Notes under the pieces: generated by a model
What the model saw: only the letters and a program-made list of their open reading frames with translations
The model's database searches: none
Told to the model about the DNA's origin: nothing
Source of the DNA: a phage
Strand: one strand, 5' to 3'
Sequence record: PZ166176.1
Length of the DNA stretch: 64,000 nt
Program-made: the position numbers and the translations under genes
Shown: positions 3,006 to 60,227 of the stretch, in pieces
Position numbering within the stretch: the first letter of the stretch is position 1
Layout: each line of letters opens with the position of its first letter

Positions 3006-3080
3006 GGCCCTGTAGCTCAATGGGAGAGCTGTCGGCTCATAACCGATAGGTAGCTGGATCGAAACCAGCCAGGGCCACCA
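3006..3080 (+). tRNA. tRNA with anticodon CAT (Met, or Ile2 if lysidine-modified), CCA encoded
   Basis: Cloverleaf folded by hand: acceptor GGCCCTG/CAGGGCC, D-stem GCTC/GAGC, anticodon loop CTCATAA, T-stem GCTGG/CCAGC, discriminator A, CCA. Confidence 0.8.
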
Positions 3081-3082
3081 AC

Positions 3083-3157
3083 GTCTTTATGGTGTAATGG
3101 ATAGCACAGGAGTCTTCTAAACTCTTAGTCAAGGTTCGATTCCTTGTAAAGACACCA
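3083..3157 (+). tRNA. tRNA-Arg (anticodon TCT), CCA encoded
   Basis: Acceptor GTCTTTA/TAAAGAC, anticodon stem GGAGT/ACTCT with loop CTTCTAA, T-stem CAAGG/CCTTG with loop TTCGATT, discriminator A, CCA. Confidence 0.8.
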
Positions 3158-3353
3158 GAACATTTTAACATGAATTAGCTCAAGTGATTTGAACCCACTA
3201 CTGATCATGGTGGCAGAGAATGAGGCAAGTATGTCAGACATTATAAACAAAGGCCACGGTTATATTAGAAGACATAAATGCTCGAAGAGCACCGTTCGTT
3301 GAGAACGGGGGTTGGTGGAGTCACCATTCATGGTAAAATGTTTTAAAAAACTA

Positions 3354-3383
3354 TTGACAACTAACATTATTTTATGTTAGATT
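3354..3383 (+). promoter_or_regulatory. promoter-like site (-35 TTGACA, 18-nt spacer, -10 TAGATT) with palindrome TAACAT...ATGTTA
   Basis: Same actattgacaa motif as at 2767 and 4103; lies just upstream of tRNA-Ser. Confidence 0.4.
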
Positions 3384-3391
3384 ATAAGTAT

Positions 3392-3482
3392 GGAAGGGCA
3401 AATCGACGTGGCGACGAAAACGGTCTTGAAAACCGCCGAGCTTGAAAGAGCCTTGGGAGTTCGACTCTCCCTCCTTCCGCCA
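3392..3482 (+). tRNA. tRNA-Ser (anticodon TGA), long variable arm, CCA encoded
   Basis: Acceptor GGAAGGG/TCCTTCC, anticodon loop CTTGAAA, long variable arm, T-stem GGGAG/CTCCC with loop TTCGACT, discriminator G, CCA; the D-arm is irregular. Confidence 0.7.
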
Positions 3483-3486
3483 GATT

Positions 3487-3572
3487 GGTAGATTGGTGAA
3501 ATGGTAGCCACGACAGTTTGCTAAACTGTAGTCGGAAACGGCGTGTAGGTTCGAGTCCTACATCTACCGCCA
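3487..3572 (+). tRNA. tRNA-Ser (anticodon GCT), long variable arm, CCA encoded
   Basis: Acceptor GGTAGAT/ATCTACC, D-stem GTGA/CCAC (read as in the analysis), anticodon stem ACAGT/ACTGT with loop TTGCTAA, T-stem GTAGG/CCTAC, discriminator G, CCA. Confidence 0.8.
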
Positions 3573-3578
3573 AATTAA

Positions 3579-3664
3579 GATGAGTTGGCTGAATGGTTTA
3601 AGCGGCGGACTGTTAATCCGTGTTCGAAAGAACGATATAGGTTCAAATCCTATACTCATCGCCA
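3579..3664 (+). tRNA. atypical tRNA: serine-like body (long variable arm, discriminator G) with anticodon GTT (Asn codons), CCA encoded
   Basis: Acceptor GATGAGT/ACTCATC (perfect), anticodon stem GCGGA/TCCGT with loop CTGTTAA, variable arm hairpin GTTC-GAAA-GAAC, T-stem ATAGG/CCTAT with loop TTCAAAT, discriminator G, CCA. Isotype cannot be settled by eye. Confidence 0.55.
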
Positions 3665-3671
3665 GAATTAT

Positions 3672-3750
3672 GGACTTGTAGAGTTAAGGTAAACCCCCAG
3701 TCGCCAAGAGGCTTCTGGAATTGCAGGTATCGAATCCTGCCGAGTCCCAG
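3672..3750 (+). pseudogene. degenerate tRNA-like element (no CCA, 8-nt T-loop, no clean anticodon arm)
   Basis: Acceptor GGACTTG/CGAGTCC and T-stem GCAGG/CCTGC are recognisable, but the D and anticodon arms do not fold canonically and CCA is absent. Confidence 0.3.
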
Positions 3751-3754
3751 CTTT

Positions 3755-3829
3755 GCTCCTATAGTATAATGGCTATTACAACGGTTTTGTAATCCGTGGA
3801 TCTCTGTTCGATTCAGAGTGGGAGCACCA
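3755..3829 (+). tRNA. tRNA-Thr (anticodon TGT), CCA encoded
   Basis: Acceptor GCTCCTA/TGGGAGC, anticodon loop TTTGTAA with a U-U loop-closing mismatch, T-stem CTCTG/CAGAG with loop TTCGATT, discriminator A, CCA. Confidence 0.75.
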
Positions 3830-4102
3830 ACACAACATTAAGAGCACTGTGATTGATCGTCGTATCCTGTGCACAAGGTCTGCTCGAAAGACAGTGTTCT
3901 TAGTATTGTGTTGATCACAAAAAGAGTTACCTGAAACTTGACCGGAGTAGGGTTGGATGGGGCAAAAGAAGAAGCGGCTCTCCCATCGACAGCAACGAAG
4001 AATAATATTTGACTTTGGTTTTGTATTATTTTAAGTTAGCTTACCGAACGTAGGGCTAGTCACCCAATGGGATACTCGTCACTGTCCCGCTCAATAAAAC
4101 TA

Positions 4103-4132
4103 TTGACAACCAATAGTAAAATGTAGTATAGT
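4103..4132 (+). promoter_or_regulatory. sigma70-like promoter (-35 TTGACA, 18-nt spacer, -10 TATAGT) with inverted repeat ACTATTG...CAATAGT
   Basis: Good match in both hexamers; lies upstream of tRNA-Gly and restarts transcription inside the tRNA region. Confidence 0.55.
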
Positions 4133-4143
4133 AAAGATGTAGG

Positions 4144-4217
4144 GCGTTCTTGGTGTAGCGGTAGCATTCCGTCCTTCCAAGTCGGCGGCACGAGTTCGAT
4201 CCTCGTAGAACGCTCCA
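4144..4217 (+). tRNA. tRNA-Gly (anticodon TCC), CCA encoded
   Basis: Acceptor GCGTTCT/AGAACGC (perfect), anticodon loop CTTCCAA, T-stem ACGAG/CTCGT with loop TTCGATC, discriminator T, CCA. Confidence 0.75.
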
Positions 4218-4315
4218 AATTATTTAATAAAGGGTTGCCAGAAAACTTTCTCTTTTACTCATGGTTTTCTCCTTCTCTCACACCTCTTCTGGTTGCCCTT
4301 CATTAAATGATTTAT

Positions 4316-4391
4316 TGGTTTGTAGTGTAGTCCGGTAGCACACGACACTTTGACTGTCGTAGGTTTGGTTCAAATCCAGACAGACCAGCCA
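4316..4391 (+). tRNA. tRNA-Gln (anticodon TTG), CCA encoded
   Basis: Acceptor TGGTTTG/CAGACCA, D-stem GTGT/ACAC region, anticodon stem CGACA/TGTCG with loop CTTTGAC, T-stem TTTGG/CCAGA with loop TTCAAAT, discriminator G, CCA. Confidence 0.75.
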
Positions 4392-4396
4392 TATAA

Positions 4397-4473
4397 CGGA
4401 ATTTAGCTCAGTTTGGTAGAGCATACGCTTTGGGAGCGTAGGGTCGCAGGTTCGAATCCTGCAATTCCGACCA
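4397..4473 (+). tRNA. tRNA-Pro (anticodon TGG), CCA encoded
   Basis: Acceptor CGGAATT/AATTCCG (perfect), anticodon stem TACGC/GCGTA with loop TTTGGGA, T-stem GCAGG/CCTGC with loop TTCGAAT, discriminator A, CCA. Confidence 0.85.
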
Positions 4474-4479
4474 ATCAAA

Positions 4480-4553
4480 TGTTTCGTAGTTCAATGGTAG
4501 AACCCACGACTGATAATCGTGAGACACAAGTTCGATTCTTGTCGAAACAACCA
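4480..4553 (+). tRNA. tRNA-Ile (anticodon GAT), CCA encoded
   Basis: Acceptor TGTTTCG/CGAAACA, D-stem GTTC/GAAC, anticodon stem CACGA/TCGTG with loop CTGATAA, T-stem ACAAG/CTTGT with loop TTCGATT, discriminator A, CCA. Confidence 0.85.
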
Positions 4554-4555
4554 GT

Positions 4556-4625
4556 TTCCCGTTAGACTTACAGGATAAGAGTTCCACAGCTTATTGTGAT
4601 GTTGGTTCGAATCCAGCACGGGATA
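4556..4625 (+). pseudogene. degenerate tRNA-like element (no CCA, irregular anticodon arm)
   Basis: T-arm GTTGG-TTCGAAT-CCAGC and an acceptor pairing with a 1:72 mismatch are present, but the anticodon region gives only a 4-bp stem with a 6-nt loop and ACA replaces CCA. Confidence 0.3.
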
Positions 4626-4631
4626 CATAAT

Positions 4632-4710
4632 AGCGGGATAGAGGAGTCTGGTCGTCCTCGCCAGTTTCATATGCTGGAGATCATCGGTTCAAATCCGATT
4701 CCCGCCTCCA
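4632..4710 (+). tRNA. tRNA with anticodon CAT and an A1:C72 mismatch (second Met/Ile2-type tRNA), CCA encoded
   Basis: Acceptor AGCGGGA/TCCCGCC, D-stem GAGG/CCTC with an 11-nt loop, anticodon stem CCAGT/GCTGG with loop TTCATAT, T-stem ATCGG/CCGAT with loop TTCAAAT, discriminator T, CCA. Confidence 0.65.
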
Positions 4711-4917: not shown

Positions 4918-5214
4918 ATGCCTAAACTAAAACGTGGTCGTGGAAGACCAACAGCCGAAATGCAACAGATCTACGCAATGGATGCGGCGCAAGCAAGTGT
5001 AAAAGAATTATTTGCAGAGCATTATTTAGAAGCTATGCGATATATTGTTGAACTTGTTAATGATAAGGATGCAGCAAAACCTCTCCGCTTCCAAGCAGCT
5101 AAAGCTATTAAAGAGCAAGTAGAAGAATGGTTAGAAGAACATTATGAAGCTATGGAAGAAGAAACCCCTGCCGTGCAGAATACAGATGACGTTCCTAAAA
5201 AGATCGTAATCTAA
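4918..5214 (+). CDS. hypothetical protein with AT-hook-like KRGRGRP motif (98 aa); small terminase subunit possible
   Basis: Strong RBS; own promoter and two downstream terminators; N-terminal PKLKRGRGRPT motif suggests DNA binding; lies upstream of the large terminase. Confidence 0.5.
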   Translation: MPKLKRGRGRPTAEMQQIYAMDAAQASVKELFAEHYLEAMRYIVELVNDKDAAKPLRFQAAKAIKEQVEEWLEEHYEAMEEETPAVQNTDDVPKKIVI

Positions 5215-5575: not shown

Positions 5576-5968
5576 ATGAATCTAAAGACTAAAACTGTAT
5601 TAAGTTTTGTTTTAATTGTTGTTCTTATTCTTGCCGGAATGTTTGCTTATAACAAGATACGTGAGTCTGGCTACAAAGATGGTATTGCCTATCAAACGCA
5701 AGTATATCAAGCAGCCCAAGCAAAAGCAAAACAAGATTTCGATGTTCTTCAAAAAAGAGCGGATGAAGAAAGAGCATTATTAAATACTCAAATAAACAAC
5801 TTGTCTAAAAACAATGCACAATTAAAAGCAGATTTAGAGAAGAAGAAACAAACGATCAATGAGGATACAACGAATTATGCAAAAACTAATTCTGGCAGTA
5901 TGTCTTGCTTTGCCCCTAATGATGACGGGTTGTTCATCATCAACAAAAGTTTCCCCAGTTCTTATTGA
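5576..5968 (+). CDS. putative i-spanin (Rz-like): N-terminal transmembrane helix plus coiled coil
   Basis: GAGGAAG RBS; product begins with TM helix VLSFVLIVVLILAGMFAY followed by a Gln/Ala/Lys-rich coiled-coil region; overlaps a lipoprotein ORF in another frame. Confidence 0.45.
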   Translation: MNLKTKTVLSFVLIVVLILAGMFAYNKIRESGYKDGIAYQTQVYQAAQAKAKQDFDVLQKRADEERALLNTQINNLSKNNAQLKADLEKKKQTINEDTTNYAKTNSGSMSCFAPNDDGLFIINKSFPSSY

Positions 5969-6203
5969 TGAGTGTAAGGCTGTAGCCATAGAAAAGGTTA
6001 AAGGTCCAGATTCGGACTTGATGGATAAAGTATCGACACCTGTGCCATACACTAAAAATCAAATTGCAAAAGGGGTTAGTAGATCTGAAGTTGTTAACAA
6101 CCAAACTCAAAACAATGCTCTTTGGGAGCAAGATAGACGAAAGGTTCTAGGTTTACAAACATATATTAAAACACTGCAAGAAAAAGGTATTATTGCTGAA
6201 TAA
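5859..6203 (+). CDS. putative o-spanin (Rz1-like lipoprotein), overlapping the i-spanin gene
   Basis: Signal peptide ending in lipobox-like LMMTGC (Cys-first mature protein); probable start at the internal ATG at 5877; 110-bp out-of-frame overlap with 5576-5968. Confidence 0.35.
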   Translation: MRIQRIMQKLILAVCLALPLMMTGCSSSTKVSPVLIDECKAVAIEKVKGPDSDLMDKVSTPVPYTKNQIAKGVSRSEVVNNQTQNNALWEQDRRKVLGLQTYIKTLQEKGIIAE

Positions 6204-6212
6204 GGAGGGAAT

Positions 6213-8288
6213 GTGGCAAAGAAAAAGGCAGCAGGTAGTTTAGCTGGAGTAGATATTGAAGTAAAGGCTCAACCAGGTAAACAGACTCTTGCAATGGATT
6301 TAATGCCAGAAGTTATGATTTATGGTGGTGCCGCTGGATGTGTTTCTGCTGAAACAGAATATCTTACAAAAGATGGTTGGAGACAGATTAGTGAATATTC
6401 TGGAGAGGATATTTACCAATACAATCCTAAGAATAAGCGTTTAGAATTGGTAACACCTTATTTTGTAGAATACGATTTAAATGGAGATAACCTATACAGA
6501 ATAACAAATGGTGTAGGATTGTTCCAAGAACTTAGTATGGAACACCGTTTTGTATTCTATAAGAAAAAGAAATCAAAGAAACATTTCGAGATTCTTGTAG
6601 GAGATCTTATTGCATTACAGCAAATAGGAAAACCCCTGCAAGGTTATGTAGAAAATCCATTCGGTAAACGTGTTCCTTTTAACATACCTGGTAAAAAGAG
6701 CACTTACTTAAAAATACACGAGGTTATTTCAACAGATGATAAGAAATATTGTTTTGAGACTCCAAGCAGCTATATTGTCTTTAGACGTGGCGATCACTGC
6801 TTCGTTACTGGGAATAGCGGCAAGTCTCGTCTGCTATTGCTGAAAGCTTTAAAATACGCCTACAAAGACCCTTTGTTTGGTGGAATACTTTTCCGTAAGA
6901 ACACCACTGCTCACCGTAAACCAGGTGGTCTGTTTACAGAAGCAAAACGTTTGTATCTTCCTTTACAACCGCACGTAAAAGAAAGTACAATGGATATCAT
7001 TTTTGAAGCCACTGGTGGTGGAACCCTCAAATTTGACCATTTGGAAAATGATAACGTAACAGCAGAAACAAACCATCAGGGTACACAGTATTCAATGGTA
7101 GGTTTTGACGAGTTAACCCACTTCACACAATATGAAATGCTCTATCTTCTGGGACGTATGCGTTCAGAGTCAGAAACAAGTTTCATGTTGTGCACATGTA
7201 ACCCTGACGCAGATAGTTGGGTTTTGAATTGGGTGTTACCTTATCTTGATGAGGGTGGTTATCCTAGAGAAGATATGTGTGGTAAACAAAAATATTTCAT
7301 CATTGTTAACGATGAACCTGTTTTTGCTGACACACCTGAAGAACTGAAAGAAAAATATCCAGAAAACTGTTTCATGGAAAACCCTAATACAGGGGAGACA
7401 GTTGTTATTGAACCACAAACTTTCGTATTTATTGGTGGGACAATATTTGATAACCCAGAACTCATTAGGCTTAACCCTAATTACTTAGCACAGCTTAAAT
7501 CACAAACAGCGATTAAAAGAGCACAGCTTCTGGACGGTTGTTGGTTTGCACGTATTCAGAAAGAATCTTTCTTTCAACGTGAATGGTTACATAAAATATC
7601 TTATAAAGATGTTCCTAACAATCTTAAACTAATGCGAGCATGGGATAAAGCTGTTTCAGTTCCTACAGAAACTTACCGTTATCCAGACTATACAACATCT
7701 GTCAAAATGGGTAAAGACCAAGATGGTAATATCTACATCTTTGGCGACTATGATTATGATGCTGTGGATGAGAAAAGTAAAATTTTCGGAAGGTTTCGAA
7801 GACTACCTGGGGAAAGGGATAACCTGATTCTAAATCAATGTAAGATTGATGGACCAGAAGTTACAGTAGTGCTTCCTAAAGACCCATCTGGTGCTGGGAC
7901 AATAGAATACACAGAGTCTGCAAAGAAACTTATTCTAGAAGGTTTTGTTGTTAAACCAGATGCTATGCCAGGTAACAAGAAAAAGCTTCAGCGTTTTATG
8001 CCTTTTAGTAGTGCGTGTCAAAACGGTTTTGTTTATATTGTTGAAGATTCTTTCCCTAATGTGGAAACTTTAACCCACTTTTATAAAGAATTGGAATCTT
8101 TCAATGGTGAAAGATCTACAGCCACTATTAAAGATGACATTCCCGATGCTGCTGCCTCTTGTTTTAATACTCTGTCAAAAGAGAATACTTTCAAAGCAGT
8201 AGCTATCCCTACAACAACAAATGCTCCTACAGGATACAGTAGAATGAACAGCGGATTTCACCAACCGTATAGTGTCCGTAAAAGATAA
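6213..8288 (+). CDS. terL: terminase large subunit, interrupted by an intein in the Walker A P-loop
   Basis: Walker A (GGAAG...SGKS) is split by an inserted segment; Walker B-like MVGFDELTHF; size and position upstream of the portal gene. Confidence 0.85.
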   Translation: MAKKKAAGSLAGVDIEVKAQPGKQTLAMDLMPEVMIYGGAAGCVSAETEYLTKDGWRQISEYSGEDIYQYNPKNKRLELVTPYFVEYDLNGDNLYRITNGVGLFQELSMEHRFVFYKKKKSKKHFEILVGDLIALQQIGKPLQGYVENPFGKRVPFNIPGKKSTYLKIHEVISTDDKKYCFETPSSYIVFRRGDHCFVTGNSGKSRLLLLKALKYAYKDPLFGGILFRKNTTAHRKPGGLFTEAKRLYLPLQPHVKESTMDIIFEATGGGTLKFDHLENDNVTAETNHQGTQYSMVGFDELTHFTQYEMLYLLGRMRSESETSFMLCTCNPDADSWVLNWVLPYLDEGGYPREDMCGKQKYFIIVNDEPVFADTPEELKEKYPENCFMENPNTGETVVIEPQTFVFIGGTIFDNPELIRLNPNYLAQLKSQTAIKRAQLLDGCWFARIQKESFFQREWLHKISYKDVPNNLKLMRAWDKAVSVPTETYRYPDYTTSVKMGKDQDGNIYIFGDYDYDAVDEKSKIFGRFRRLPGERDNLILNQCKIDGPEVTVVLPKDPSGAGTIEYTESAKKLILEGFVVKPDAMPGNKKKLQRFMPFSSACQNGFVYIVEDSFPNVETLTHFYKELESFNGERSTATIKDDIPDAAASCFNTLSKENTFKAVAIPTTTNAPTGYSRMNSGFHQPYSVRKR
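6339..6815 (+). mobile_element. mini-intein (about 159 aa) in the terminase P-loop
   Basis: Begins CVSAETEYLTKDGW directly after GGAAG and ends ...DHCFVTGN before SGKS; excision would restore the P-loop GGAAGSGKS. Confidence 0.6.
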
Positions 8289-15689: not shown

Positions 15690-17063
15690 ATGGCAACTTT
15701 TCGTGAAAAGGTAGCAACCGTAACTTTACTGTATGGTGCTACATCAATTCGTGAAACCCAGTTCGATATTCCCCTGATCCTTACAGGTCAGAACGTAACT
15801 GGCGAAGCGATTCAATATTACTCTTCTTCCGATGCACTTTTGGAAGCAGGTTATGGATTAAATGATCCAGCGTATATTATGGCAGTCAAACTGTTTAACG
15901 GTTTGTTCCCACCAGATCAAGTTATGGTTGGTAAGCGTGAAGTTACAAACTTTACTCTAACTCCAATCGTAGAAGATAGTGCAACTTACACAATTACCAT
16001 CAAAAATGGTACCAAGAAAAAAGAATTTAAATTCATTGCTGATGACACTGCAACTGCACAAGAGATTGTAGTTGGTCTGACTGAAATGATCAATGCAGAT
16101 CTCGTTTATGGCCCACTGTTTACAGTAGCTAACAACGGCGCCGCAATGACTTTCACTCCAGTAGAAGGTAAGTTTGGTTCTATTGACAGCACAGGTTTCA
16201 CTCAAGAAACTGTCTATGCTAATGCTATTACGGAAGATATTGCTGCTCTGCATGATATTGATAGTAGCTGGTTCTGGACCCTTTCAGATTCCCATGAAAC
16301 AGAAGATGTTCTAGCTTTGGCTGCATGGGTAGAAGAGAATGATAAAGTTTACTTCTTCTCTAGCTCTGAACCTGGAATTAAAACGAAAGCAGAAGATAAC
16401 GTTCTGGAACGACTGAATGACCTCGGTTATAATAACACTTGCTTTGCTTTGTGGATGACCGATGCAGATTCTGTATTCCCAGAAGCAGCAGTTGTTGGTG
16501 CAATCTGTTCTCGTCAACCTGGTTTAACTACTCTTCACGGTAAAACACTGGTAGGCGTAGAGATCGAGAAACTGGATCAGACTTCGGAAAATAATATTGT
16601 TCAACAGAACGGTAACATCTATCGTAAAGAGCATGGAACTCTGTTCTATCGTGATGGATTGATGGTTAGCGGTTTCTTTGTTGATTATGTTGTTCATGCT
16701 TTGTGGTTTAAAGCTCGCACAGAAGAATCACTGTTTACACTGTTTAAACAACAGTCTATGCTGGGTGGCGGTGTTCGTGCTACTTCAAACGGTCTGGCTT
16801 TGATTCGACAAGCTGTTCTGGCTAACCCGATCCAAGTAGGTATCCTCAACGGTTCCATCGCTAATGAAGTTGTTACTTCTGAAGAGACTGGTTTGCGTGT
16901 CGATCTGAAACCTATTGTTTATATTCCTTCTCGTGCCGATATGACTGATGCGCAAATCAATGCTCGTCTGGTCGATGGGATGAAGATTGAATATGTTTAC
17001 GCTGGCTTCTTCCATTACGTTAAAGTTCAGGTCAACGTCCTGACTAACCGTACTGCAAACTAA
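15690..17063 (+). CDS. putative tail sheath protein (457 aa)
   Basis: Large gene followed by a 159-aa gene, two chaperone ORFs and the tape measure; high-expression codon usage; called by synteny only. Confidence 0.5.
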   Translation: MATFREKVATVTLLYGATSIRETQFDIPLILTGQNVTGEAIQYYSSSDALLEAGYGLNDPAYIMAVKLFNGLFPPDQVMVGKREVTNFTLTPIVEDSATYTITIKNGTKKKEFKFIADDTATAQEIVVGLTEMINADLVYGPLFTVANNGAAMTFTPVEGKFGSIDSTGFTQETVYANAITEDIAALHDIDSSWFWTLSDSHETEDVLALAAWVEENDKVYFFSSSEPGIKTKAEDNVLERLNDLGYNNTCFALWMTDADSVFPEAAVVGAICSRQPGLTTLHGKTLVGVEIEKLDQTSENNIVQQNGNIYRKEHGTLFYRDGLMVSGFFVDYVVHALWFKARTEESLFTLFKQQSMLGGGVRATSNGLALIRQAVLANPIQVGILNGSIANEVVTSEETGLRVDLKPIVYIPSRADMTDAQINARLVDGMKIEYVYAGFFHYVKVQVNVLTNRTAN

Positions 17064-17065
17064 TA

Positions 17066-17090
17066 CGGCGGGGGTTAAGCCCCCGTTATC
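17066..17090 (+). terminator. hairpin CGGGGG-TTAA-GCCCCCG after the sheath gene (weak T-run; attenuator-like)
   Basis: GC-rich stem-loop read directly; only a short U tract follows. Confidence 0.4.
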
Positions 17091-17109
17091 AAAATAAAGA
17101 GGATCTATA

Positions 17110-17589
17110 ATGGATAAAATGCTTACTGGCGTAATGGCCTACGACCCATCTCAAGTTATCCTTTCATTAGGTGGTTGGGAACCGTGGGGTTTTGCGGCTG
17201 ATACTAAAATCGTTATTGCTAAATCTAACGATATTATCAACCCTTATTCAGGGACTGATGGCGACGTTTCTCTAGCTTTGAGTCGTAACCGTTTGGGAAC
17301 ACTCACAATGTCTTTGCAACGCACATCTCCAGCTAACGAAGTACTTGCAACATATGCACAAACAATGTATTCTACTCGTCAAGTAGCGTTCAGTGTTTAC
17401 TTGGAAGACCCACGTGGCTATTACATTAGCACGATTGGATGGATTCAAAGTCAGCCTGAAGATACTATTGGTGAAATGATTACAGAGAACCAATGGGTTA
17501 TTGGTCTTAAAGATGCAAGCCTTCTGCGTAATGAAGTTGGTGTAGGTTTGAGCACCCTTAACTCAATCTCTGCTCTGACAATTCAATAA
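17110..17589 (+). CDS. putative tail tube protein (159 aa)
   Basis: Position after the sheath gene, size, strong terminator downstream; called by synteny. Confidence 0.5.
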   Translation: MDKMLTGVMAYDPSQVILSLGGWEPWGFAADTKIVIAKSNDIINPYSGTDGDVSLALSRNRLGTLTMSLQRTSPANEVLATYAQTMYSTRQVAFSVYLEDPRGYYISTIGWIQSQPEDTIGEMITENQWVIGLKDASLLRNEVGVGLSTLNSISALTIQ

Positions 17590-17594
17590 TAAAT

Positions 17595-17616
17595 AAAGGG
17601 CAGAAATGCCCTTTTT
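17595..17616 (+). terminator. rho-independent terminator after the tube gene
   Basis: Hairpin AAAGGGCA-GAAA-TGCCCTTT followed by TTTTT. Confidence 0.75.
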
Positions 17617-17634
17617 ATCATTAGAGAGGAAAAT

Positions 17635-18117
17635 ATGTCACAAGAACAAGATAACACAATTCAAAAATATGCTCGACCAGAAGAAGTAGTTGAGATTCCG
17701 TTAGATGGAAACAGATCTGTTACTTTCCGTATTATGAAGTGGAGTCCATCTAAAGTGTTTGACAGGATTCCAGAATTGGGTAGTGTTCTGGTTGTTCCTA
17801 TGACTATGTATAGCACAGCAACAATGTCCGCAGACGAAGACCTTGAGTCACGTATTGCTATGGCACTGATCCAACTTTTTTCAGGTTTGGAAGAAAAGAA
17901 TTTAACTGTCTTTTTGCGTAAAATTTTAGATGAGGTTTATACCCAAGACGGTTATAACGTTGCAGAAAATTTTGATGAATTATTTATGGCTCACCCAGAA
18001 CTAGTGTTAGATCTTACTGCTAAAGTTCTGGAGGTAAACTACGGCCCTTTTTTCAAACGAGGTTTCGGAAAACTGTTCACACAGCTTCAGGCGATGACGA
18101 GTTTAGCAGCAAATTAA
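17635..18117 (+). CDS. tail assembly chaperone (G-like, 160 aa)
   Basis: Located directly before the tape measure gene; contains a slippery heptamer near its 3' end and an overlapping -1 frame ORF. Confidence 0.5.
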   Translation: MSQEQDNTIQKYARPEEVVEIPLDGNRSVTFRIMKWSPSKVFDRIPELGSVLVVPMTMYSTATMSADEDLESRIAMALIQLFSGLEEKNLTVFLRKILDEVYTQDGYNVAENFDELFMAHPELVLDLTAKVLEVNYGPFFKRGFGKLFTQLQAMTSLAAN

Positions 18118-18383
18118 CACCTGCGATTGAACATGCTATCGACACAGCAACGAAAACCCTTACTTTGAAGTGGTATGAGGTTATTCTTTGCAAAGTCGTT
18201 AAAGATACCTCGGAAACACTGAAAACATTAGATAACTACGGTGTAGATTATCTTTTAAAACTATATGAGTATTTAACATACGAAGAGTATGTTGAAGCCA
18301 TGTATGTTAAAGACACTTCAATAAAGAGAAAACATCAAAACCAGACAAATAAAATGTCAGATTTGTTTAAGAAACTTGTTTAA
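18048..18383 (+). CDS. -1 frameshift extension of the tail assembly chaperone (GT-like fusion product)
   Basis: Heptamer T TTT TTC at 18048-18054 in the zero frame of 17635-18117; the -1 frame is open from 18024 to 18383 (track ORF 18165-18383 is in this frame). Confidence 0.45.
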   Translation, partial: FFQTRFRKTVHTASGDDEFSSKLTPAIEHAIDTATKTLTLKWYEVILCKVVKDTSETLKTLDNYGVDYLLKLYEYLTYEEYVEAMYVKDTSIKRKHQNQTNKMSDLFKKLV

Positions 18384-18403
18384 TCCAACACGAGGAACAT
18401 ACT

Positions 18404-20392
18404 TTGTTAGAAATTAACGCCTCCAAAATTAGTAACGTGGTTACGTTTAAGGTGGACAAGAACAGTCTCAAGGAAGCAAAAGATGCCGTGTTGAGTGTTC
18501 AGAAGTTTGCAAATAAAATGCAACCCACTATGAACATGACCAAGTTTAGACAACAAATGAAAGAGATTGAGCGTGAACTTAAGAAAGCTCAAACTCAAAG
18601 TCAAAAGCCTATGCGAGCACCTACTCCCGCTGGAGCGGGTGCTCCTGTAGGTGGTTCTGGTAGACCTAGAACTCCTAAAACGCCGCAAGGAAGAGAAGAA
18701 GAAAAAGCTCGTAAAGCTGCTGAACGCGAAGCTAAAGCAGCAGCACGTAGGGAAGACTTAGGTAATCTTCGTTTGCAGAACTTTAACTACCGAGCAAGAG
18801 CATTTAGTAAAGCAAGCCCTGGTGCTATGCAAGAAGCTAGAGACGTTATGGGTAAAGCCGTAGAGCAATACAAAAAGGGTGAAATAACTCTTCAACGTAT
18901 GAACCAAGCTCTTGCTCACCAGTTAGATGCTTTACGCAGATCTCATCGTGAAAAGAATGCTGAAATAGAAGACGAGGTTCGAGGTCGTCGCCGTATTCGT
19001 AGAGAGCTAGAAGCAGAAGCTAAAATGCGTATACGTATGCGAAATCGTGAACTTAGAGATATAGAACGCAACCGTAAGCGTGAATTAGCTCAACAGAAAC
19101 GTGATCGTGATCGTCGATATGGACAATTAAAAGAAGGTGCAGCAGGTCTTAATCCACGCATGATTGCATCCTCTTTGATTGGTGCTGGGCTGTTTGCAGG
19201 TGGTTCTGTAGTTGGTAACACGTTGATGAATACTAACGAAAGAATTAAACTTGTAAGCCGTGGTGCTGAAAACGTTCAGACAAACGCCAACGCTATTTTG
19301 GCAATGACAGCTTGGGGTGAACAGAACGGTGTAGACTCTGCAAATATTATTAAATCAATAGATAATATTAAAGACGTTCGTGAACGTCTTGGTAATACAG
19401 TTTTAGCTGCAAAGTGGAATGAGAAAGAAGGGAAGTGGAAAGGCGGTGATAATGGCATAACTGACATTATGAACTTGTTTGGATGGAATCCAGAACAGCT
19501 TAAACCTTTACAGAACGATCCTTTAGCTTTTATTCAGGCTACTGTTAATGAAGGTGAGCGTCGAGGTATGAACTCTGCTCAAATCGGGCGACTTCTTGAA
19601 AACCTTGGTGATGACCTTATGCACTACCAACGTATGTTTAGTAAAAACGGCGAAGGGTATAATGAAGTATTGAAGATGCTTCAAAGAACAGGTGCAACAT
19701 TAACTCAAGAACAAATAGATGCTTCTAAAGAGTTTACTCGTTTTGCTGCAACAGTTCAGCTTGTAGGTCAAGGTATGCAGAACCATTTCTTAGAAGGTTT
19801 TGTAAAAGCTTTACCTAAAGATGATTCTTGGTTGGATAACGTTAAAGTGCTAGATCAGTTCGCCAAAGATTTAGGTGAAGAACTCGGTAAGACAACAGTT
19901 CAATTAGGAGGTTTTGCTAAAGAATTGGGAGATGGTTTCGGATCTTTTACCAATTGGCTTAAAGAAACATTCCCAGATACATTCGGAGACAACACAGATC
20001 CTAATAAATCTATAGCACAAAAAGCATACGAGGCAACGCAAAGTGGAGACAGCAATCCTGTAGCAGATTGGTTGTACAATTTAACAGGTATTGATACACA
20101 AGATATTGGTCGTATGTGGAGAGGAGAACAAACAAGAACACGTGCTTTTGGATTTGGTAATCCTCTTGAAGATTTACGTGAATCAGCCTATACACCTAAC
20201 GTAAGTTTGGCTCGTAATCAACCTGTTGTTGAGAATACGGTAGCAATACCAAGTGATCTTATCAAAGTTACGATCAGCCCTTCTTCAGAGTTTGGAAATA
20301 TTCTTGATGCAAGAATTCAAAATAGCGGAAATAGCATTTTCCAACGTTTGTCTCTTTCAACTCTAAGTGGACAATCTAACACTGGTGGTTAA
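18404..20392 (+). CDS. tail tape measure protein (662 aa)
   Basis: TTG start after GAGGAACA; Arg/Lys/Glu-rich coiled-coil middle region; position after the chaperone pair. Confidence 0.65.
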   Translation: MLEINASKISNVVTFKVDKNSLKEAKDAVLSVQKFANKMQPTMNMTKFRQQMKEIERELKKAQTQSQKPMRAPTPAGAGAPVGGSGRPRTPKTPQGREEEKARKAAEREAKAAARREDLGNLRLQNFNYRARAFSKASPGAMQEARDVMGKAVEQYKKGEITLQRMNQALAHQLDALRRSHREKNAEIEDEVRGRRRIRRELEAEAKMRIRMRNRELRDIERNRKRELAQQKRDRDRRYGQLKEGAAGLNPRMIASSLIGAGLFAGGSVVGNTLMNTNERIKLVSRGAENVQTNANAILAMTAWGEQNGVDSANIIKSIDNIKDVRERLGNTVLAAKWNEKEGKWKGGDNGITDIMNLFGWNPEQLKPLQNDPLAFIQATVNEGERRGMNSAQIGRLLENLGDDLMHYQRMFSKNGEGYNEVLKMLQRTGATLTQEQIDASKEFTRFAATVQLVGQGMQNHFLEGFVKALPKDDSWLDNVKVLDQFAKDLGEELGKTTVQLGGFAKELGDGFGSFTNWLKETFPDTFGDNTDPNKSIAQKAYEATQSGDSNPVADWLYNLTGIDTQDIGRMWRGEQTRTRAFGFGNPLEDLRESAYTPNVSLARNQPVVENTVAIPSDLIKVTISPSSEFGNILDARIQNSGNSIFQRLSLSTLSGQSNTGG

Positions 20393-20399
20393 TAAAATA

Positions 20400-20422
20400 C
20401 CTCGCTTCGGCGGGGTTTTTTC
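20400..20422 (+). terminator. rho-independent terminator (CCTCGC-TTCG-GCGGGG plus TTTTTT)
   Basis: UUCG tetraloop hairpin followed by a T-run directly after the tape measure stop. Confidence 0.8.
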
Positions 20423-20429
20423 GTTTCCC

Positions 20430-20459
20430 TTGACACGAAGTTTCTATATGTGTTACAAT
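20430..20459 (+). promoter_or_regulatory. sigma70-like promoter (-35 TTGACA, 18-nt spacer, -10 TACAAT) for the baseplate genes
   Basis: Consensus hexamers immediately after the terminator. Confidence 0.55.
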
Positions 20460-20518
20460 AATCAATATGGGAAGATCTTGCATCTTCCTTTTGGCATTAT
20501 CATTACTACGAGGTTATC

Positions 20519-21220
20519 ATGGCAGCAATGACTCCACAACAGTCGGTGAGAGCCGTCTATAAGGCAGAACAGGAAATCAACTCTACCGAGAATAAAAATA
20601 CCTCGGCATCTACTGTAAAAGGTGATAATGGTTTCTGCATTTTAGCAAGTGTTTATAATAGTTCAAGTGATCAATACATTCAAAACTTTAAAGCAATTAC
20701 TTTCGATTCAGTCCCTGAAATAGGTGTAACTCGTGAGGCAGATGTTACAAGTTTTCCAGTAGAATCAGGATCAGATGTAAGTGACCACGTTCAAATAAAA
20801 AACAACAGATTTAAACTTTCAGGTATAATTACCGAAACACCAATTCGGCTTATGCGAGATCAATTATACAGTGCAGGTGTAAATGGAGCAAGGATTTCTC
20901 AAGCAATAGAATACCTAGATCAAATATTTGAGTCAAGACAACCAATAGTTCTTTTGACAGAACATAGAACTTTTGAAAATGTTATTCTCAAAGGTTATTC
21001 CTATGATTATAAATCTGAATTTGCTATGCAATTTGATTTAGAGTTTGAACAAATCCGTCTTGTTTCTAAGGCCACTACTAACGCTATTGCTGTAAAAACA
21101 GCACCAAATAAGTCAACTGGTGGTGATGTGAAAGGTCAAGTTGCTTCGAATGGTCCTAAGTCAGATATTACAGTAAGAACTGCTGAAGCTACTAATACCC
21201 CAACAAACAACGGAGGTTAA
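20519..21220 (+). CDS. tail / baseplate structural protein (233 aa)
   Basis: ORF in the post-tape-measure baseplate block. Confidence 0.45.
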   Translation: MAAMTPQQSVRAVYKAEQEINSTENKNTSASTVKGDNGFCILASVYNSSSDQYIQNFKAITFDSVPEIGVTREADVTSFPVESGSDVSDHVQIKNNRFKLSGIITETPIRLMRDQLYSAGVNGARISQAIEYLDQIFESRQPIVLLTEHRTFENVILKGYSYDYKSEFAMQFDLEFEQIRLVSKATTNAIAVKTAPNKSTGGDVKGQVASNGPKSDITVRTAEATNTPTNNGG

Positions 21221-21222
21221 TA

Positions 21223-21636
21223 GTGACAACTTATTCTAAAACAACAAGGTCTACAAGTAATACAGGCTACAGTGCAGTTTATCTGGAGGACCATTCTACT
21301 TATTTTGCATGGTATCTGAAAACTGAAGAGTACCCTGATCAAACATATACAGTTACATTGGATGGAGTTGATTATGACATTCGTTTAAGGTGGAACACTA
21401 GGGACGAGTCTTGGCAATGTCAGATGGGATTATCTGGAGATGATCCAAGTATAAGTTTCAAAGTTACAAATGGTTTAGATCTTCTTAAACCTTATAAATA
21501 TCTTGAAAGTGTTCCAGATGGTCAATTGTATATAGTAGATACAGTTAAGATTAATGGTCGTCCTGGGTATACAACTACAGGTCGAGATAAACGTTTTGTA
21601 TTGGTTTATATTGATAACAAACCTAATCAGGCGTAA
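21223..21636 (+). CDS. tail / baseplate structural protein (137 aa)
   Basis: ORF tightly packed with its neighbours. Confidence 0.45.
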   Translation: MTTYSKTTRSTSNTGYSAVYLEDHSTYFAWYLKTEEYPDQTYTVTLDGVDYDIRLRWNTRDESWQCQMGLSGDDPSISFKVTNGLDLLKPYKYLESVPDGQLYIVDTVKINGRPGYTTTGRDKRFVLVYIDNKPNQA

Positions 21637-21645
21637 GGAGATAAT

Positions 21646-22656
21646 ATGGCAGAAAGAGAGTATACAAAAGCTCCTGCCCCTAATTTAAACAGGGCATACA
21701 AATTATTAATTGGTTCTGCCACAAACACAATACAGAAGAGAACTAAGAACTCGGCATTTAAATCTACAGTAGATTTGGATACCAAGTTAGGGACAACAGA
21801 AAAATCCTCTTCTAATTTGTATTTGTTGCAAGACCATCAAATAACCTTCAGCATTAAGAAAGATAATAACAAAGATCCTAACCAAGCAGAGATTGTAGTT
21901 TATAACCTTTCGGATGATACTGTTAATTATATAAACCGTGGTATCCGAAATAACTTGGCTGTTGCTTTAGCGGTAGGATACGAAGGTGAAGAGTTGGTTA
22001 TGATCTTCAAAGGAACTATCCAATGGGTTAGTGATACTTTTGACTCGGTAGACAGGAAAACCACTTTACACTGTTTGGATGGCGGTATTAACATTGCAGA
22101 AGCAAGAACAAGCCGCAGTTATCCAAAAGGAACTAAAATCAAACGTGTTGTGACAGATTTGGTAAAGGATTTAGGAACTACAGAAGGTAATATACACGTA
22201 GATAATGATCAAACCTTATCTTCAGCAACAGCTATGTGTGGAAACACTTCACATTACCTAGAACATATTTGTAAAAGTATTGATCACAATGTGTCAATAC
22301 AAGATGGATCTGTTTATGTTACTCCTCGTTCACAAATGTCTAGTGCACGTAGCGCCTATATTAGCCCTGAAACTGGTCTGATAGGAAGTCCAGAACCATT
22401 CCACAACGATATAAAACCTACTAAAAAAGTTACCAAGTCCTCTAAGAAGGCAAAGAAACCTACAGATGGTGTTAAATTCAAATGCCAAATGAATGGTGCA
22501 ATATTACCAGAAAAAACAATCTGGTTAAAAAGCCGAGATTATGACGGTCCATTTAAAGTTGTTTCTGTTTCTCACAATGGTGATAAAGAGGGTAAAGAGT
22601 GGGTTACTGAAGTGGAGTGTGTATCCGTGTCTGAAATAATGACTAAGGAGAAATAA
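21646..22656 (+). CDS. putative baseplate hub protein (336 aa)
   Basis: Position after the tape measure; function not verifiable by motif. Confidence 0.4.
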   Translation: MAEREYTKAPAPNLNRAYKLLIGSATNTIQKRTKNSAFKSTVDLDTKLGTTEKSSSNLYLLQDHQITFSIKKDNNKDPNQAEIVVYNLSDDTVNYINRGIRNNLAVALAVGYEGEELVMIFKGTIQWVSDTFDSVDRKTTLHCLDGGINIAEARTSRSYPKGTKIKRVVTDLVKDLGTTEGNIHVDNDQTLSSATAMCGNTSHYLEHICKSIDHNVSIQDGSVYVTPRSQMSSARSAYISPETGLIGSPEPFHNDIKPTKKVTKSSKKAKKPTDGVKFKCQMNGAILPEKTIWLKSRDYDGPFKVVSVSHNGDKEGKEWVTEVECVSVSEIMTKEK

Positions 22657-23390
22657 TGGATGCATTGAATTTTGTCACAGCAATGCGTGGCTTAATGACA
22701 GAACAATTAGCAGAAGTCCATACAGCCTTGCCAGTCCGTGTGACTGGTGTTAATTATGGTGCTAAAACTGTCACTTTAGAATCTATTGTTAAAAACACAC
22801 GATCTAGTGAAGATGAAATAGATTATCCAACTTTCGAAGATGTTCCTTTCATGGTTAATGGTGGTGGGACAGGAAGAATCTCATTCCCTATTAAAGCTGG
22901 CGATTTAGGAACTGTTATATTTTCTGAAAGAGATCCTTCTAATGCACTGCAAACTAGTGGGGAAACCTCTTCATCATCCACTTTTATGCAGCCTTGTGGA
23001 TTATACCCTATTTGTTTTATTCCCAAAATAGCTACAGGAACAGATTCAACAGAAGCTGTAGATTCTGAAAAGGTAGTTATTTCTAATAACAAAAACACGT
23101 ACGCTTCTTTCGACCCTACAGGTAATATTTCAATATGGAATAGTCAAGGGATGAAAATAGATATTACTACCTCCGGTATTACTATTACAGATGGCACAGG
23201 AACTTTGGATCTAAAAGGTGGTAATTTAACTTTCAAAGGCGGCGTGGCAGATATCAATGGTCTTAAAATAGACCAGAACGGTTTGATGACAGATGGTAAT
23301 GGCATCGGATTCCATACTCACACGCACACGGTTCGTAACATTCAGAGCGGTAACTCAAGTGCCGAGTCCTTAAAACCAACAGGAGCCTAA
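22656..23390 (+). CDS. putative baseplate central spike protein (244 aa)
   Basis: Position immediately upstream of the baseplate wedge-like gene; start overlaps the previous stop. Confidence 0.35.
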   Translation: MDALNFVTAMRGLMTEQLAEVHTALPVRVTGVNYGAKTVTLESIVKNTRSSEDEIDYPTFEDVPFMVNGGGTGRISFPIKAGDLGTVIFSERDPSNALQTSGETSSSSTFMQPCGLYPICFIPKIATGTDSTEAVDSEKVVISNNKNTYASFDPTGNISIWNSQGMKIDITTSGITITDGTGTLDLKGGNLTFKGGVADINGLKIDQNGLMTDGNGIGFHTHTHTVRNIQSGNSSAESLKPTGA

Positions 23391-23391
23391 C

Positions 23392-27364: not shown

Positions 27365-27372
27365 GGGGTAAA

Positions 27373-29526: not shown

Positions 29527-29534
29527 GAGTAAAA

Positions 29535-31530: not shown

Positions 31531-31842
31531 ATGAACGAGATGTTCTCACAAGGTGGTAAAGGTTCAACTGGAATCTTAACCAATAAACAAGCAGTAGCCC
31601 GTCACTTTGGAGTTAAACAATCTGAGGTTGTTTACTTCTCAGTTGGTGCACTGCTTGATGGGTACAAAGTTATCTATGATAAGGAGACGCAAAGGGCGTA
31701 TTCCCTACCTGCTGATATTGCCCCAGGTACTATTGCCATTAGTCTTAGTGCTGCCGGAGTATTAGTTCACTCTGCGGGTAATGTGGACCTTGGGGAATTA
31801 GCTGTATCTCGTGATTTAAAAAGTAATGAGAACGCACTATGA
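31531..31842 (+). CDS. hypothetical protein (103 aa)
   Basis: ORF with RBS AGAGG; sits between fibre-like genes. Confidence 0.45.
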   Translation: MNEMFSQGGKGSTGILTNKQAVARHFGVKQSEVVYFSVGALLDGYKVIYDKETQRAYSLPADIAPGTIAISLSAAGVLVHSAGNVDLGELAVSRDLKSNENAL

Positions 31843-32081
31843 GAAAATTTTTAATAGGTATGTTCTGTACATATCCTGATAATAAAGTCAGTTCTACGAA
31901 AGTCTGGAACGCTGTAGGCATGTCGGTTATGACAGGCATGTTTATCTTTTTAGGAATAGAAAAAGAAATTCCTGAATGGATGGGTTGGGCTTTTGTTTTC
32001 ATGATAACTCCTTCTCGCCTCATGAAAAATCTTATTGATTTACGCTGGGGCAGATCACAATCTACCAAAGAGGATGACTAA
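31839..32081 (+). CDS. small membrane protein with two predicted TM helices (holin-like topology)
   Basis: 80 aa; hydrophobic segments VWNAVGMSVMTGMFIFLGI and WMGWAFVFMITP followed by a charged C-terminus. Confidence 0.35.
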   Translation: MRKFLIGMFCTYPDNKVSSTKVWNAVGMSVMTGMFIFLGIEKEIPEWMGWAFVFMITPSRLMKNLIDLRWGRSQSTKEDD

Positions 32082-54796: not shown

Positions 54797-54803
54797 ACTT
54801 CAC

Positions 54804-56424: not shown

Positions 56425-56432
56425 TTTCTCTC

Positions 56433-58921: not shown

Positions 58922-58936
58922 CTTTTGTCTCCTCTA

Positions 58937-60226: not shown

Positions 60227-60227
60227 A

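Follow-up and report, generated by a model that had tools for sequence, protein, structure and literature searches.

Are the lysis genes of this phage scattered along its genome, and which of its proteins would open the host cell? The question is raised by two overlapping genes just upstream of the large terminase gene in the window analyzed here, a stretch of 64 000 nt of phage DNA (sequence record PZ166176.1). An initial annotation had read these genes as a spanin-like pair, had named a two-TM holin-like protein among the tail genes and a signal-bearing hydrolase as the only cell-wall hydrolase, and had proposed that there is no compact lysis cassette and that the lysin may be exported.

The window belongs to a Phapecoctavirus (phAPEC8-like), with 99.7% identity to deposited genomes over 3 kb; 65 phage records were at least 95% identical to it over the 3 kb compared. 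Phapecoctavirus phages are E. coli myoviruses with genomes of ~150 kb. For genome-wide checks we used OR437326, the complete genome of a relative with 99.4% identity across the spanin-TerL region. The features considered are listed in Table 1.

Table 1. Genes considered in relation to lysis; coordinates are those of the window unless another record is given
Feature	Coordinates	Strand	Basis
i-spanin (Rz-type), 130 aa	5576..5968	+	phrog_4297, TM segment, public annotations
o-spanin (Rz1-type outer-membrane lipoprotein), 108-aa precursor	5877..6203	+	phrog_1267, lipobox, homologues
Large terminase subunit (TerL; context gene)	6213..8288	+	PF03237 Terminase_6N from residue 202 onward
80-aa small membrane protein, holin candidate only	31839..32081	+	phrog_1322
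SleB-like (Hydrolase_2) peptidoglycan hydrolase, 173 aa	57698..58219	-	PF07486, predicted Sec signal peptide
T4 e-like lysozyme, 166 aa	OR437326 12.2-12.7 kb, ~21 kb upstream of window start		PF00959

The spanin genes beside the large terminase

The product of the first gene matched the PHROGs family phrog_4297, 'Rz-like spanin' (E 9e-35). It has a single strong N-terminal TM anchor (residues 7-25, KD 2.57), preceded by MNLKTK with its two Lys and followed by ~105 residues of charged periplasmic domain; a single conserved Cys, C111 near the C-terminus, is kept in the phi92 and KP13-16 homologues. Weak matches of the periplasmic domain to coiled-coil families, DUF7365 (E 7.5e-4) and OmpH, stayed below threshold. 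As the protein scored 17.4 bits against the NCBIfam LysB equivalog cut-off of 92.75, it is no LysB equivalog. Public records label this gene 'Rz-like spanin' or 'Rz spanin'.

The second gene, read in the +1 frame, shares 92 nt with the first, an arrangement also found in phi92 and KP13-16, and its stop codon is 9 nt before the TerL start. The ORF, which opens at 5859 and is 100% identical to that of phAPEC8, matched phrog_1267, again 'Rz-like spanin' (E 1e-20, PHROGs). The true start is most likely the ATG at 5877 (MQKLILAV...), with GAGGA 11 nt upstream; the phi92 ORF extends only one codon upstream of the corresponding Met. From this start the signal reads MQKLILAVCLALPLMMTG, followed by the lipobox Cys and by Ser at +2, and the lipobox CLALPLMMTG-C fits the PROSITE PS51257-type pattern. 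Cleavage would leave a mature protein of 90 aa, in which residue 15 is a second conserved Cys. Both the lipobox Cys, invariant among the homologues compared, and this second Cys are kept in three diverged homologues (phi92, KP13-16 and ESCO5), in which the +2 residue is Ala, Asn or Ser and never Asp; with no Asp at +2, the protein is predicted to be sorted to the outer membrane. One conserved periplasmic Cys was noted in each of the two spanin proteins. A protein homologue search with the o-spanin returned close relatives only.

Could the second ORF be a chance out-of-frame reading, with only the i-spanin-like gene real? Several gene callers do omit or shorten it: many records begin it at 5919 (MMTGC...), thereby losing the signal peptide, the resulting 94-aa calls predominate in the protein database, and the phi92 RefSeq entry has no CDS there. 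However, protein-level conservation extends to both frames (66% identity to phi92, 37.5% to KP13-16), and the invariant lipobox Cys and the phrog_1267 match likewise argue against chance, so that we regard such a reading as extremely improbable. What does count against a spanin, beside the low LysB score of the i-spanin, is length and composition: lambda Rz1 is short and proline-rich, whereas the mature protein here is long (90 aa), with only 4 prolines.

Judged by sequence, the two genes are confirmed as a genuine overlapped two-component spanin. The spanin-like pair and the out-of-frame lipoprotein gene of the initial annotation thus hold up, including a lipobox that looks functional. The pair is already known: it was catalogued by Kongari (2018, BMC Bioinformatics, PMC6139136), where phi92 and phAPEC8 form a family of i- and o-spanins outside the 'separated' class, and that family's gene pair is the present one, with no substantive difference. 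Several GenBank records annotate it as i-/o-spanin; 'o-spanin' appears in those of ESCO5, EmilieFrey and BME3. The o-spanin is nevertheless shortened or left out in many Phapecoctavirus and Justusliebigvirus records, an error that can be corrected.

The neighboring TerL gene carries a 159-aa mini-intein (6339-6815) that interrupts the Walker A motif; sequence searches of Pfam and PDB found nothing for the insert, and a library-wide HMMER search settled it as an intein. A 98-aa gene at 4918-5214 may encode the small terminase subunit.

The 80-aa membrane protein and the search for a holin

The putative holin is a real and conserved membrane protein, and its position among tail genes is as proposed: it follows a tailspike-anchor ORF and precedes a baseplate gene, with translational coupling to both (ATGA and TAATG overlaps). 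The gene was found in 372 phage records, within the tail-fibre/baseplate module in every locus sampled, and tail-fibre modules throughout the rV5-like phages retain the protein. The 'two-TM holin-like' description is only half borne out. Only one TM segment is clear (about residues 22-41); a second hydrophobic stretch, 47-62, is sub-threshold in the window protein as in its APECc02 and CB7 homologues. A low-confidence AF2 model from a shallow alignment (pLDDT 63; helices 19-41, 46-56 and 59-70) splits that stretch into two short helices. The protein matched phrog_1322, 'membrane protein' (E 1.8e-27), which PHROGs files under moron/host takeover, and it had no hit at all in Pfam or NCBIfam and none to a holin family in PHROGs; a protein homologue search returned close relatives only. 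Beyond the clear TM segment, 6 K+R are balanced by 6 D+E, giving the tail a net charge of 0 (-1 or -2 in homologues), and the usually basic C-tail of a class II holin is absent. Nor is the gene linked to an endolysin or spanin, lying 26 kb away from both the spanin genes and the SleB-like gene.

A dual-start (holin/antiholin) motif, M1...M8, was set aside as evidence for a holin; it occurs in Stephanstirmvirinae only and is lacking in distant homologues. A PF10841 flag on the homologue P0038 could not be reproduced. As to public labels, the BME3 record calls its homologue 'membrane protein-holin', and the ESCO9 and REC records call theirs 'structural protein'.

Because only one of its TM segments is clear, its C-tail is neutral and it matched no holin family, the 80-aa protein is a putative candidate among several. 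Higher PHROG numbers mark smaller families, so that the other small TM proteins of the genome, in PHROGs numbered 16065 to 30003, presumably belong to small ones. Some of these other small proteins look, from their sequences, at least as holin-like: the 68-aa product of a gene at 126593-126799 of OR437326 has two TM segments and a tail charge of +4, similar to rV5 ORF129, whose tail is +2. ORF129 is the holin candidate of rV5 (PMC3606486) and CB7_82 that of CB7 (PMC7344957); they are different proteins from those here, and neither gave a tblastn hit better than E 0.9. By homology, then, no holin was identifiable in this phage. The phAPEC8/phi92/rV5-like group is popular in therapy, and three differing, non-homologous holin candidates have been proposed in three of its genera.

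That the 80-aa protein is nonetheless the holin we hold as a tentative possibility: it is the only small membrane protein kept throughout the rV5-like supergroup, and it is encoded in a late operon. Its single TM segment, neutral tail and strict tail synteny suit a tail-related role equally well. With a likelihood somewhat short of even, it may be a membrane factor of the tail module with no part in lysis, for example an assembly helper or a protein of Llp/Cor type for receptor masking or superinfection exclusion, while the true holin would be a small two-TM protein encoded elsewhere, such as the 68-aa product just described. Synteny with tail-fibre genes is strict in Stephanstirmvirinae, Vequintavirinae and Aeromonas Plateaulakevirus, and the PHROGs category points the same way. 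The invariant motifs of the family, S.TK, PEW and LRWG, sit in its non-TM parts and thus suggest a specific partner. Receptor masking, however, is hard to reconcile with conservation across phages of differing hosts and receptors, and the 80-aa homologue is absent from the virion proteins of CB7 confirmed by MS/MS, among which its neighbors are present. The alternative two-TM candidates, moreover, are restricted to single genera, and those of rV5 and CB7 have no homologue here.

Wall-degrading enzymes and a scheme of lysis

The SleB-like protein scored 64.1 bits with PF07486 Hydrolase_2 (cut-off 27). Its 'IYAEGRG' aligns with 'VYGESRG' of the SleB structures 4F55 and 4FET, and the YxE motif is retained, the Glu of which we take to be the catalytic residue of SleB. 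The signal peptide ascribed to it is borne out by the N-terminal sequence: by a rule-based reading MLIK, NFVTVALLSLTAFTF and TPVVAKA stand in turn before EA, with cleavage after residue 26, a predicted cleavable signal of SPase I type with n-, h- and c-regions and A-x-A. The homologue CB7_83 has a signal as well, MRKSTAALIAASVLSLAPAPALA before KE (...APAPALA/KE). The TTG start is preceded by a strong Shine-Dalgarno sequence, AAGGAGG, and a sigma70-like promoter match (TTGCAA-17-TATACT with extended -10 TG) lies upstream at 58280-58252. The gene is part of a minus-strand module of replication, Ter and glycosyltransferase genes; this location and the promoter match suggest expression ahead of the late genes.

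As the only cell-wall hydrolase, this enzyme stands within the window, where 10 tail proteins scanned for hidden peptidoglycan-hydrolase domains had none; genome-wide it does not. OR437326 encodes a protein matching PF00959 Phage_lysozyme (GH24; 43.4 bits, cut-off 22.3) and sharing 47.6% identity across 166 aa with the lysozyme found in T4-like (~165-170 kb) coliphages. It has no TM segment, signal sequence or hydrophobic N-terminus and is predicted to be of cytoplasmic type. The gene recurs at ≥95% identity in 65 phage records (65/65 near-identical genomes), from which we infer that the present isolate has it too. In OR437326 it is flanked by a PhoH-like gene and a gene for a 49-aa soluble protein, with no small TM protein encoded within ~13 kb. 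A PF00959 lysin of the rV5 lineage, LysECP26, lyses Gram-negative cells in vitro (PMC9728275).

On these data we consider T4-style dispersed lysis likely, with an overlapped spanin, the cytoplasmic e-type lysozyme as main lysin and the SleB-like enzyme as accessory. The inner-membrane-anchored i-spanin and the Lol-sorted o-spanin share one late message with the terminase gene. The wall would most likely be degraded by the cytoplasmic lysozyme, which would require a hole-forming holin to get to it, and the SleB-like enzyme, exported by Sec, would act as an accessory wall enzyme in the periplasm. By analogy with the lambda Rz/Rz1 model, the spanin C-termini would meet across the periplasm as disulfide-linked homodimers and, after removal of the peptidoglycan mesh, fuse the inner and outer membranes.

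An exported lysin was not supported as the only candidate, given the rival cytoplasmic lysozyme, which is the more conventional endolysin. In its fullest form it would make the SleB-like hydrolase the main lysin, waiting in the periplasm until the 80-aa protein, as a class-II-like (pin)holin, depolarizes the membrane and unleashes it, with the spanin finishing lysis. The canonical signal peptides here and in CB7_83 and the retained catalytic motif speak for this, as do the conservation of the enzyme across all rV5-like lineages and that of the universally kept, late-encoded 80-aa protein; CB7_83, which bears a signal peptide, was toxic when expressed, and a part in host lysis has been ascribed to CR3_087 (Buttimer et al. 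2020, PMC7344957). Yet every Phapecoctavirus genome encodes the conventional T4 e-type lysozyme, the module and promoter match of the SleB-like gene suggest expression ahead of the late genes, the 80-aa protein shows neither a second clear TM segment nor a basic tail, and Hydrolase_2 domains also occur in other large virulent phages (T5-like, Pakpunavirus). The main endolysin of T5 is a separate protein. We therefore find this course of events improbable; the SleB-like protein is probably a conserved accessory wall enzyme of the periplasm rather than the primary lysin, and it could, in view of the toxicity of CB7_83, contribute to lysis. Simple genetics could resolve the role of this conserved signal-bearing hydrolase. 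One could also speculate about lysis on two tracks throughout the rV5-like supergroup: an early, Sec-exported SleB-type transglycosylase held inactive in the periplasm and a waiting cytoplasmic lysozyme would both be triggered by phrog_1322 as a new holin family in the tail-fibre module, possibly with a neighboring TM-coiled-coil protein (35828-36163) as regulator; we think this quite improbable.

The dispersed layout among known systems

No canonical holin-endolysin-spanin cassette was found in the complete OR437326, in agreement with the absence of a compact one proposed at the outset. In that genome the spanin genes occupy 38.7-39.3 kb, the SleB-like gene is found at 91.2-91.7 kb, and no TM gene stands beside these or beside the lysin gene. 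Dispersed layouts have been published for rV5, CB7, PVP-SE1 and BME3 (PMC7344957; PMC3606486; PMC12210895). Since both the scattered layout and the spanins had been described for the group and its relatives, the finding is an ordinary one, of little significance as a discovery: the spanins are catalogued and annotated, and the layout is in print for this phage lineage.

With rV5-like phages the present phage shares spanin genes beside TerL, the lack of a classic cassette, a signal-bearing SleB-like hydrolase and a separate lysozyme-type lysin. The differences are in detail: the spanin genes of rV5-like phages are 'separated' and those here overlapped (PMC6139136), the rV5 lysin is closer to the lambda enzyme and the lysin here is T4 e-like (PMC9728275), and in CB7 a small TM gene, CB7_82, is downstream of the SleB-like gene, where there is none here.

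The lysis genes of T4 (e, t and those of the spanin) are located apart, and its holin gene t adjoins tail-fibre genes, as does the 80-aa candidate here. Like T4, the phage is a large virulent myovirus; its e-type lysozyme is soluble, and its lysin, candidate holin and spanin genes are at unlinked loci. It has, however, neither a homologue of the T4 holin T nor one of rI, and the T4 spanin is 'separated' according to Kongari (PMC6139136), unlike the overlapped one here. The rV5 authors had likened the dispersed position of their putative holin to that in T4 (PMC3606486).

With T7 and SP6 the phage has in common that its spanin genes directly precede the large terminase gene and are distant from that of the endolysin. 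In T7 the spanin genes 18.5/18.7 are between genes 18 and 19. SP6 and VP4 have been cited for terminase-adjacent spanins (PMC7344957). In contrast to T7 and SP6, the present phage is a myovirus.

Exported endolysins are known in a Sec-type form (Lys44 of Oenococcus phage fOg44) and a SAR-type form (P1 Lyz, phage 21 R). Like them, the SleB-like wall hydrolase carries an export signal at its N-terminus and would need no large-hole holin to reach the periplasm. It differs in having no (pin)holin gene adjacent and in that its role in lysis is putative; SAR endolysins have a Gly/Ala-rich anchor, whereas its signal resembles the cleavable SPase I type (AKA/EA).

A spanin gene pair beside the large terminase gene

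By sequence, the two overlapping genes at 5576-6203 form a true spanin pair next to the terminase gene, in agreement with the initial annotation, which had seen a spanin-like pair upstream of the large terminase gene (TerL). Matches to two PHROGs named 'Rz-like spanin', a lipobox, conserved cysteines and an overlap of 92 nt with protein-level conservation in both frames put this call far beyond chance. In the i-spanin, a single strong hydrophobic segment at the N-terminus (residues 7-25) leads into a charged domain of ~105 residues; the N-terminus of the o-spanin, MQKLILAVCLALPLMMTG-C, agrees with a PROSITE-type lipobox pattern. Only 9 nt separate the o-spanin stop from the start codon of TerL.

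Features discussed in the text (window coordinates, unless OR437326.1, the complete genome of a close relative, is named)
Feature	Location	Strand	Description
Ten tRNA genes	3006-4710	+	Met, Arg, Ser, Asn, Thr, Gly, Gln, Pro, Ile, Met
98-aa protein	4918-5214	+	phrog_3330; N-terminal KRGRGRPT motif; just 5' of spanin genes
i-spanin	5576-5968	+	130 aa; phrog_4297, E 9e-35
o-spanin ORF	5859-6203	+	+1 frame; phrog_1267, E 1e-20
159-aa insertion	6339-6815	+	inside TerL (6213-8288); divides Walker A: YGGAAG / C...FVTGN / SGKS
80-aa protein	31839-32081	+	phrog_1322 'membrane protein'
SleB-like hydrolase	57698-58219	-	Pfam Hydrolase_2, 64 bits (cut-off 27)
Tellurite-resistance-type stress cluster	beside SleB-like gene	-	TerD, vWA-TerF-like, TelA, SprT-like
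Four glycosyltransferase genes	other flank of SleB-like gene	-	
T4 e-like lysozyme	OR437326.1 12161-12661		PF00959; 166 aa, without export signal
Neighbours of lysozyme gene	OR437326.1		PhoH-like gene, 49-aa soluble protein, thioredoxin-like gene
68-aa protein	OR437326.1 126593-126799		phrog_30003; among small early genes

The lipobox Cys was invariant in phi92 (66% identity to the o-spanin), Klebsiella phage KP13-16 (37.5%) and ESCO5; the +2 residue was Ser, Ala or Asn, never Asp, a pattern that agrees with outer-membrane sorting by Lol. Another Cys, ~14 residues past the lipobox Cys, was kept in the same comparison, and the i-spanin retains one Cys close to its C-terminus across homologues; these conserved residues mirror the periplasmic cysteines carried by lambda Rz/Rz1. 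Lambda Rz1 is short and proline-rich, unlike the mature o-spanin, which has 90 aa and only four prolines. The i-spanin scored below the NCBIfam LysB equivalog cut-off, which places it outside the LysB family; it may still work in a P2 LysB-like manner.

The o-spanin start is most likely ATG 5877, since GAGGA lies upstream of it, the longer ORF aligns with diverged homologues in tblastn from residue 6-7 onwards, and the phi92 ORF (1201-1533 of the phi92 locus, L013) opens just one codon ahead of the equivalent Met. Many public records share a systematic annotation error, calling the gene from MMTGC (5919 versus 5877; 94 aa) and thus removing the signal peptide; the phi92 RefSeq record carries no o-spanin CDS. 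Nevertheless, the pair is already known: RefSeq/GenBank records name the i-spanin 'Rz-like spanin', both genes are labelled i-/o-spanin in the ESCO5, EmilieFrey and BME3 records, and Kongari et al. 2018 (PMC6139136) included (phi92, phAPEC8) among both the i-spanin and the o-spanin families, and not in their 'separated' class.

Genome context and the TerL insertion

By sequence, the window can be assigned to Phapecoctavirus (Stephanstirmvirinae), as a phAPEC8-like myovirus with a genome of ~150 kb. Dozens of Escherichia Phapecoctavirus phages in the databases share 99.3-99.7% identity with a 3-kb stretch around the spanin locus, and 65 records match at >=95% identity. The tRNA cluster lies directly 5' of the packaging module; the plus-strand packaging/head/tail module is followed by a minus-strand replication module from ~44 kb. 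Genome-wide statements were checked on the complete annotated OR437326.1, 99.4% identical over the spanin-TerL region.

In T7 the spanin genes 18.5/18.7 sit between 18 and 19. Spanin genes also adjoin terminase genes in SP6 and VP4 (PMC7344957), so that the arrangement seen here has parallels in all three phages. Should the 98-aa protein of 4918-5214 be the small subunit of terminase, the gene order here (TerS-spanins-TerL) would be that of T7; family searches gave no match in favour of this identity. The linkage is not universal within Stephanstirmvirinae, as in the more distant member KP13-16 (858-1515 of its locus, L014) a homologous overlapped spanin pair precedes tRNA genes and not the large terminase gene.

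Sequence searches of Pfam and PDB with the TerL insertion gave no matches; HMMER, run across the whole library, returned 388 homologues. All of them align from the first Cys of the insert, mostly as two blocks, at varied positions within unrelated proteins of 225-1320 aa, some with LAGLIDADG endonucleases (sampled hosts were RecD-like and SNF2 helicases, a primase, a SAM synthetase and a LAGLIDADG-containing phosphoesterase). The insertion thus bears the signature of a mini-intein.

A cytoplasmic lysozyme and a hydrolase with a predicted export signal

The SleB-like enzyme had been proposed as the only cell-wall hydrolase and as a lysin exported by its signal peptide. Within the window the former holds, as no wall-hydrolase domain was found in ten tail proteins; genome-wide it does not, and the exported enzyme fails as sole lysin, because OR437326.1 encodes a cytoplasmic T4 e-like lysozyme, at a position ~21 kb ahead of where the window begins. 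Along its entire length this enzyme shares 47.6% identity with the lysozyme of T4-like (~165-170 kb) coliphages, and copies at >=95% identity occur in 65 records, as many as there are Phapecoctavirus records. For the rV5-lineage PF00959 lysin, lytic activity has been measured (PMC9728275). A hydropathy scan of OR437326.1 detected no small membrane protein within ~13 kb of the lysozyme gene; a canonical holin-endolysin cassette was therefore not found elsewhere in that genome, and the proposed absence of a compact lysis cassette stands.

The signal peptide proposed for the SleB-like protein is supported: the N-terminus reads as a cleavable signal of standard type (MLIK / hydrophobic core / TPVVAKA-EA), translated from a TTG start with AAGGAGG seven bases before, and the CB7 homologue has a similar signal (...APAPALA-KE). 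In alignment, 'YAEGRG' pairs with 'YGESRG' of solved SleB catalytic domains. A total of 1,094 phage records carry the domain, among them records of T5-like phages and of Pseudomonas Pakpunavirus; matches to these two groups cover the catalytic part only (residues 49-170). The flanking stretches, 58319-63324 (-) and 53852-56996 (-), suggest that the gene belongs to an envelope/stress module and not to a lysis module, and that its role is accessory and envelope-related, not dedicated to late lysis. There is a sigma70-like promoter match 5' of the gene; such matches are only ~twofold enriched in the region. The CB7 SleB-like protein, with signal peptide, was toxic when expressed (PMC7344957). Beyond these flanks, OR437326.1 has genes for a membrane protein with 9 TM segments and for a two-TM protein of 73 aa.

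Following the lambda, P2 and T4 paradigms, some holin would permeabilise the inner membrane late in infection, the cytoplasmic lysozyme would next degrade the wall, and the i-/o-spanin complex, released from the peptidoglycan mesh, would fuse inner and outer membranes; the SleB-like enzyme would be accessory. The published layout of rV5-like relatives is the same (PMC7344957, PMC3606486, PMC12210895); in BME3, two endolysins were described, along with distant class-II-like small proteins (PMC12210895). The initial annotation was largely correct as observation and partly as interpretation, on a subject already known; what interest remains, modest and experimentally easy to pursue, concerns which protein is the holin and what the exported hydrolase does.

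Holin candidates and membrane proteins of the tail module

The 80-aa protein had been described as a two-TM holin-like protein among tail genes. Its location and one clear TM segment were confirmed, but the second hydrophobic stretch was sub-threshold, likewise in two distant homologues. Together with a net neutral to acidic C-terminal region, this makes its sequence features weak for a class II holin. It had no match in Pfam or NCBIfam, and its AF2 model was of low confidence. The gene overlaps its neighbours at both ends (ATGA at the start, TAATG at the stop), indicating translation within the late tail operon. Homologues in 372 phage records (Stephanstirmvirinae; Vequintavirinae including rV5, CB7 and Seunavirus; Aeromonas Plateaulakevirus) sat amid tail-fibre or baseplate genes in all loci inspected; the invariant residues S.TK, PEW and LRWG are all outside the TM segment.

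At least seven further small two-TM proteins are encoded in OR437326.1, in PHROGs numbered 16065 to 30003. As PHROG numbers rise with falling family size, we took these as small, genus-restricted families. One of them, the 68-aa protein, combines Ala/Gly-rich sequence in both TM segments with a basic C-tail of +4; in these features it is closer than the 80-aa protein to rV5 ORF129, a proposed holin. The published candidates, ORF129 in rV5 (PMC3606486) and CB7_82 in CB7 (PMC7344957), differ from the 80-aa protein and have no homologue in Phapecoctavirus. The holin idea for the 80-aa protein is already in print, as the BME3 record and paper (PMC12210895) name its homologue 'membrane protein-holin'. 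We regard it as the best-conserved candidate, though a doubtful one; a function linked to the tail module is about equally or more likely.

Directly 5' of the 80-aa gene, a 103-aa ORF (31531-31842, +) corresponds to the N-terminal anchor domain of tailspikes only, covering positions 327-420 of phrog_7992 and positions 1-95 of many tailspike families; the ORF is either a free-standing adaptor or a remnant. After the tail-fibre assembly gene, 35828-36163 (+) encodes a 111-aa protein whose N-terminal TM segment precedes a long coiled-coil-like tail. Its PHROGs label is 'lipoprotein', yet the protein has no Cys and hence no lipobox. Weakly similar to CB7_33 (E 0.008), weakly matching a spanin PHROG (E 1e-3) and encoded where rV5 has gp31, it joins the 80-aa protein as a second conserved membrane protein in the tail-fibre module.
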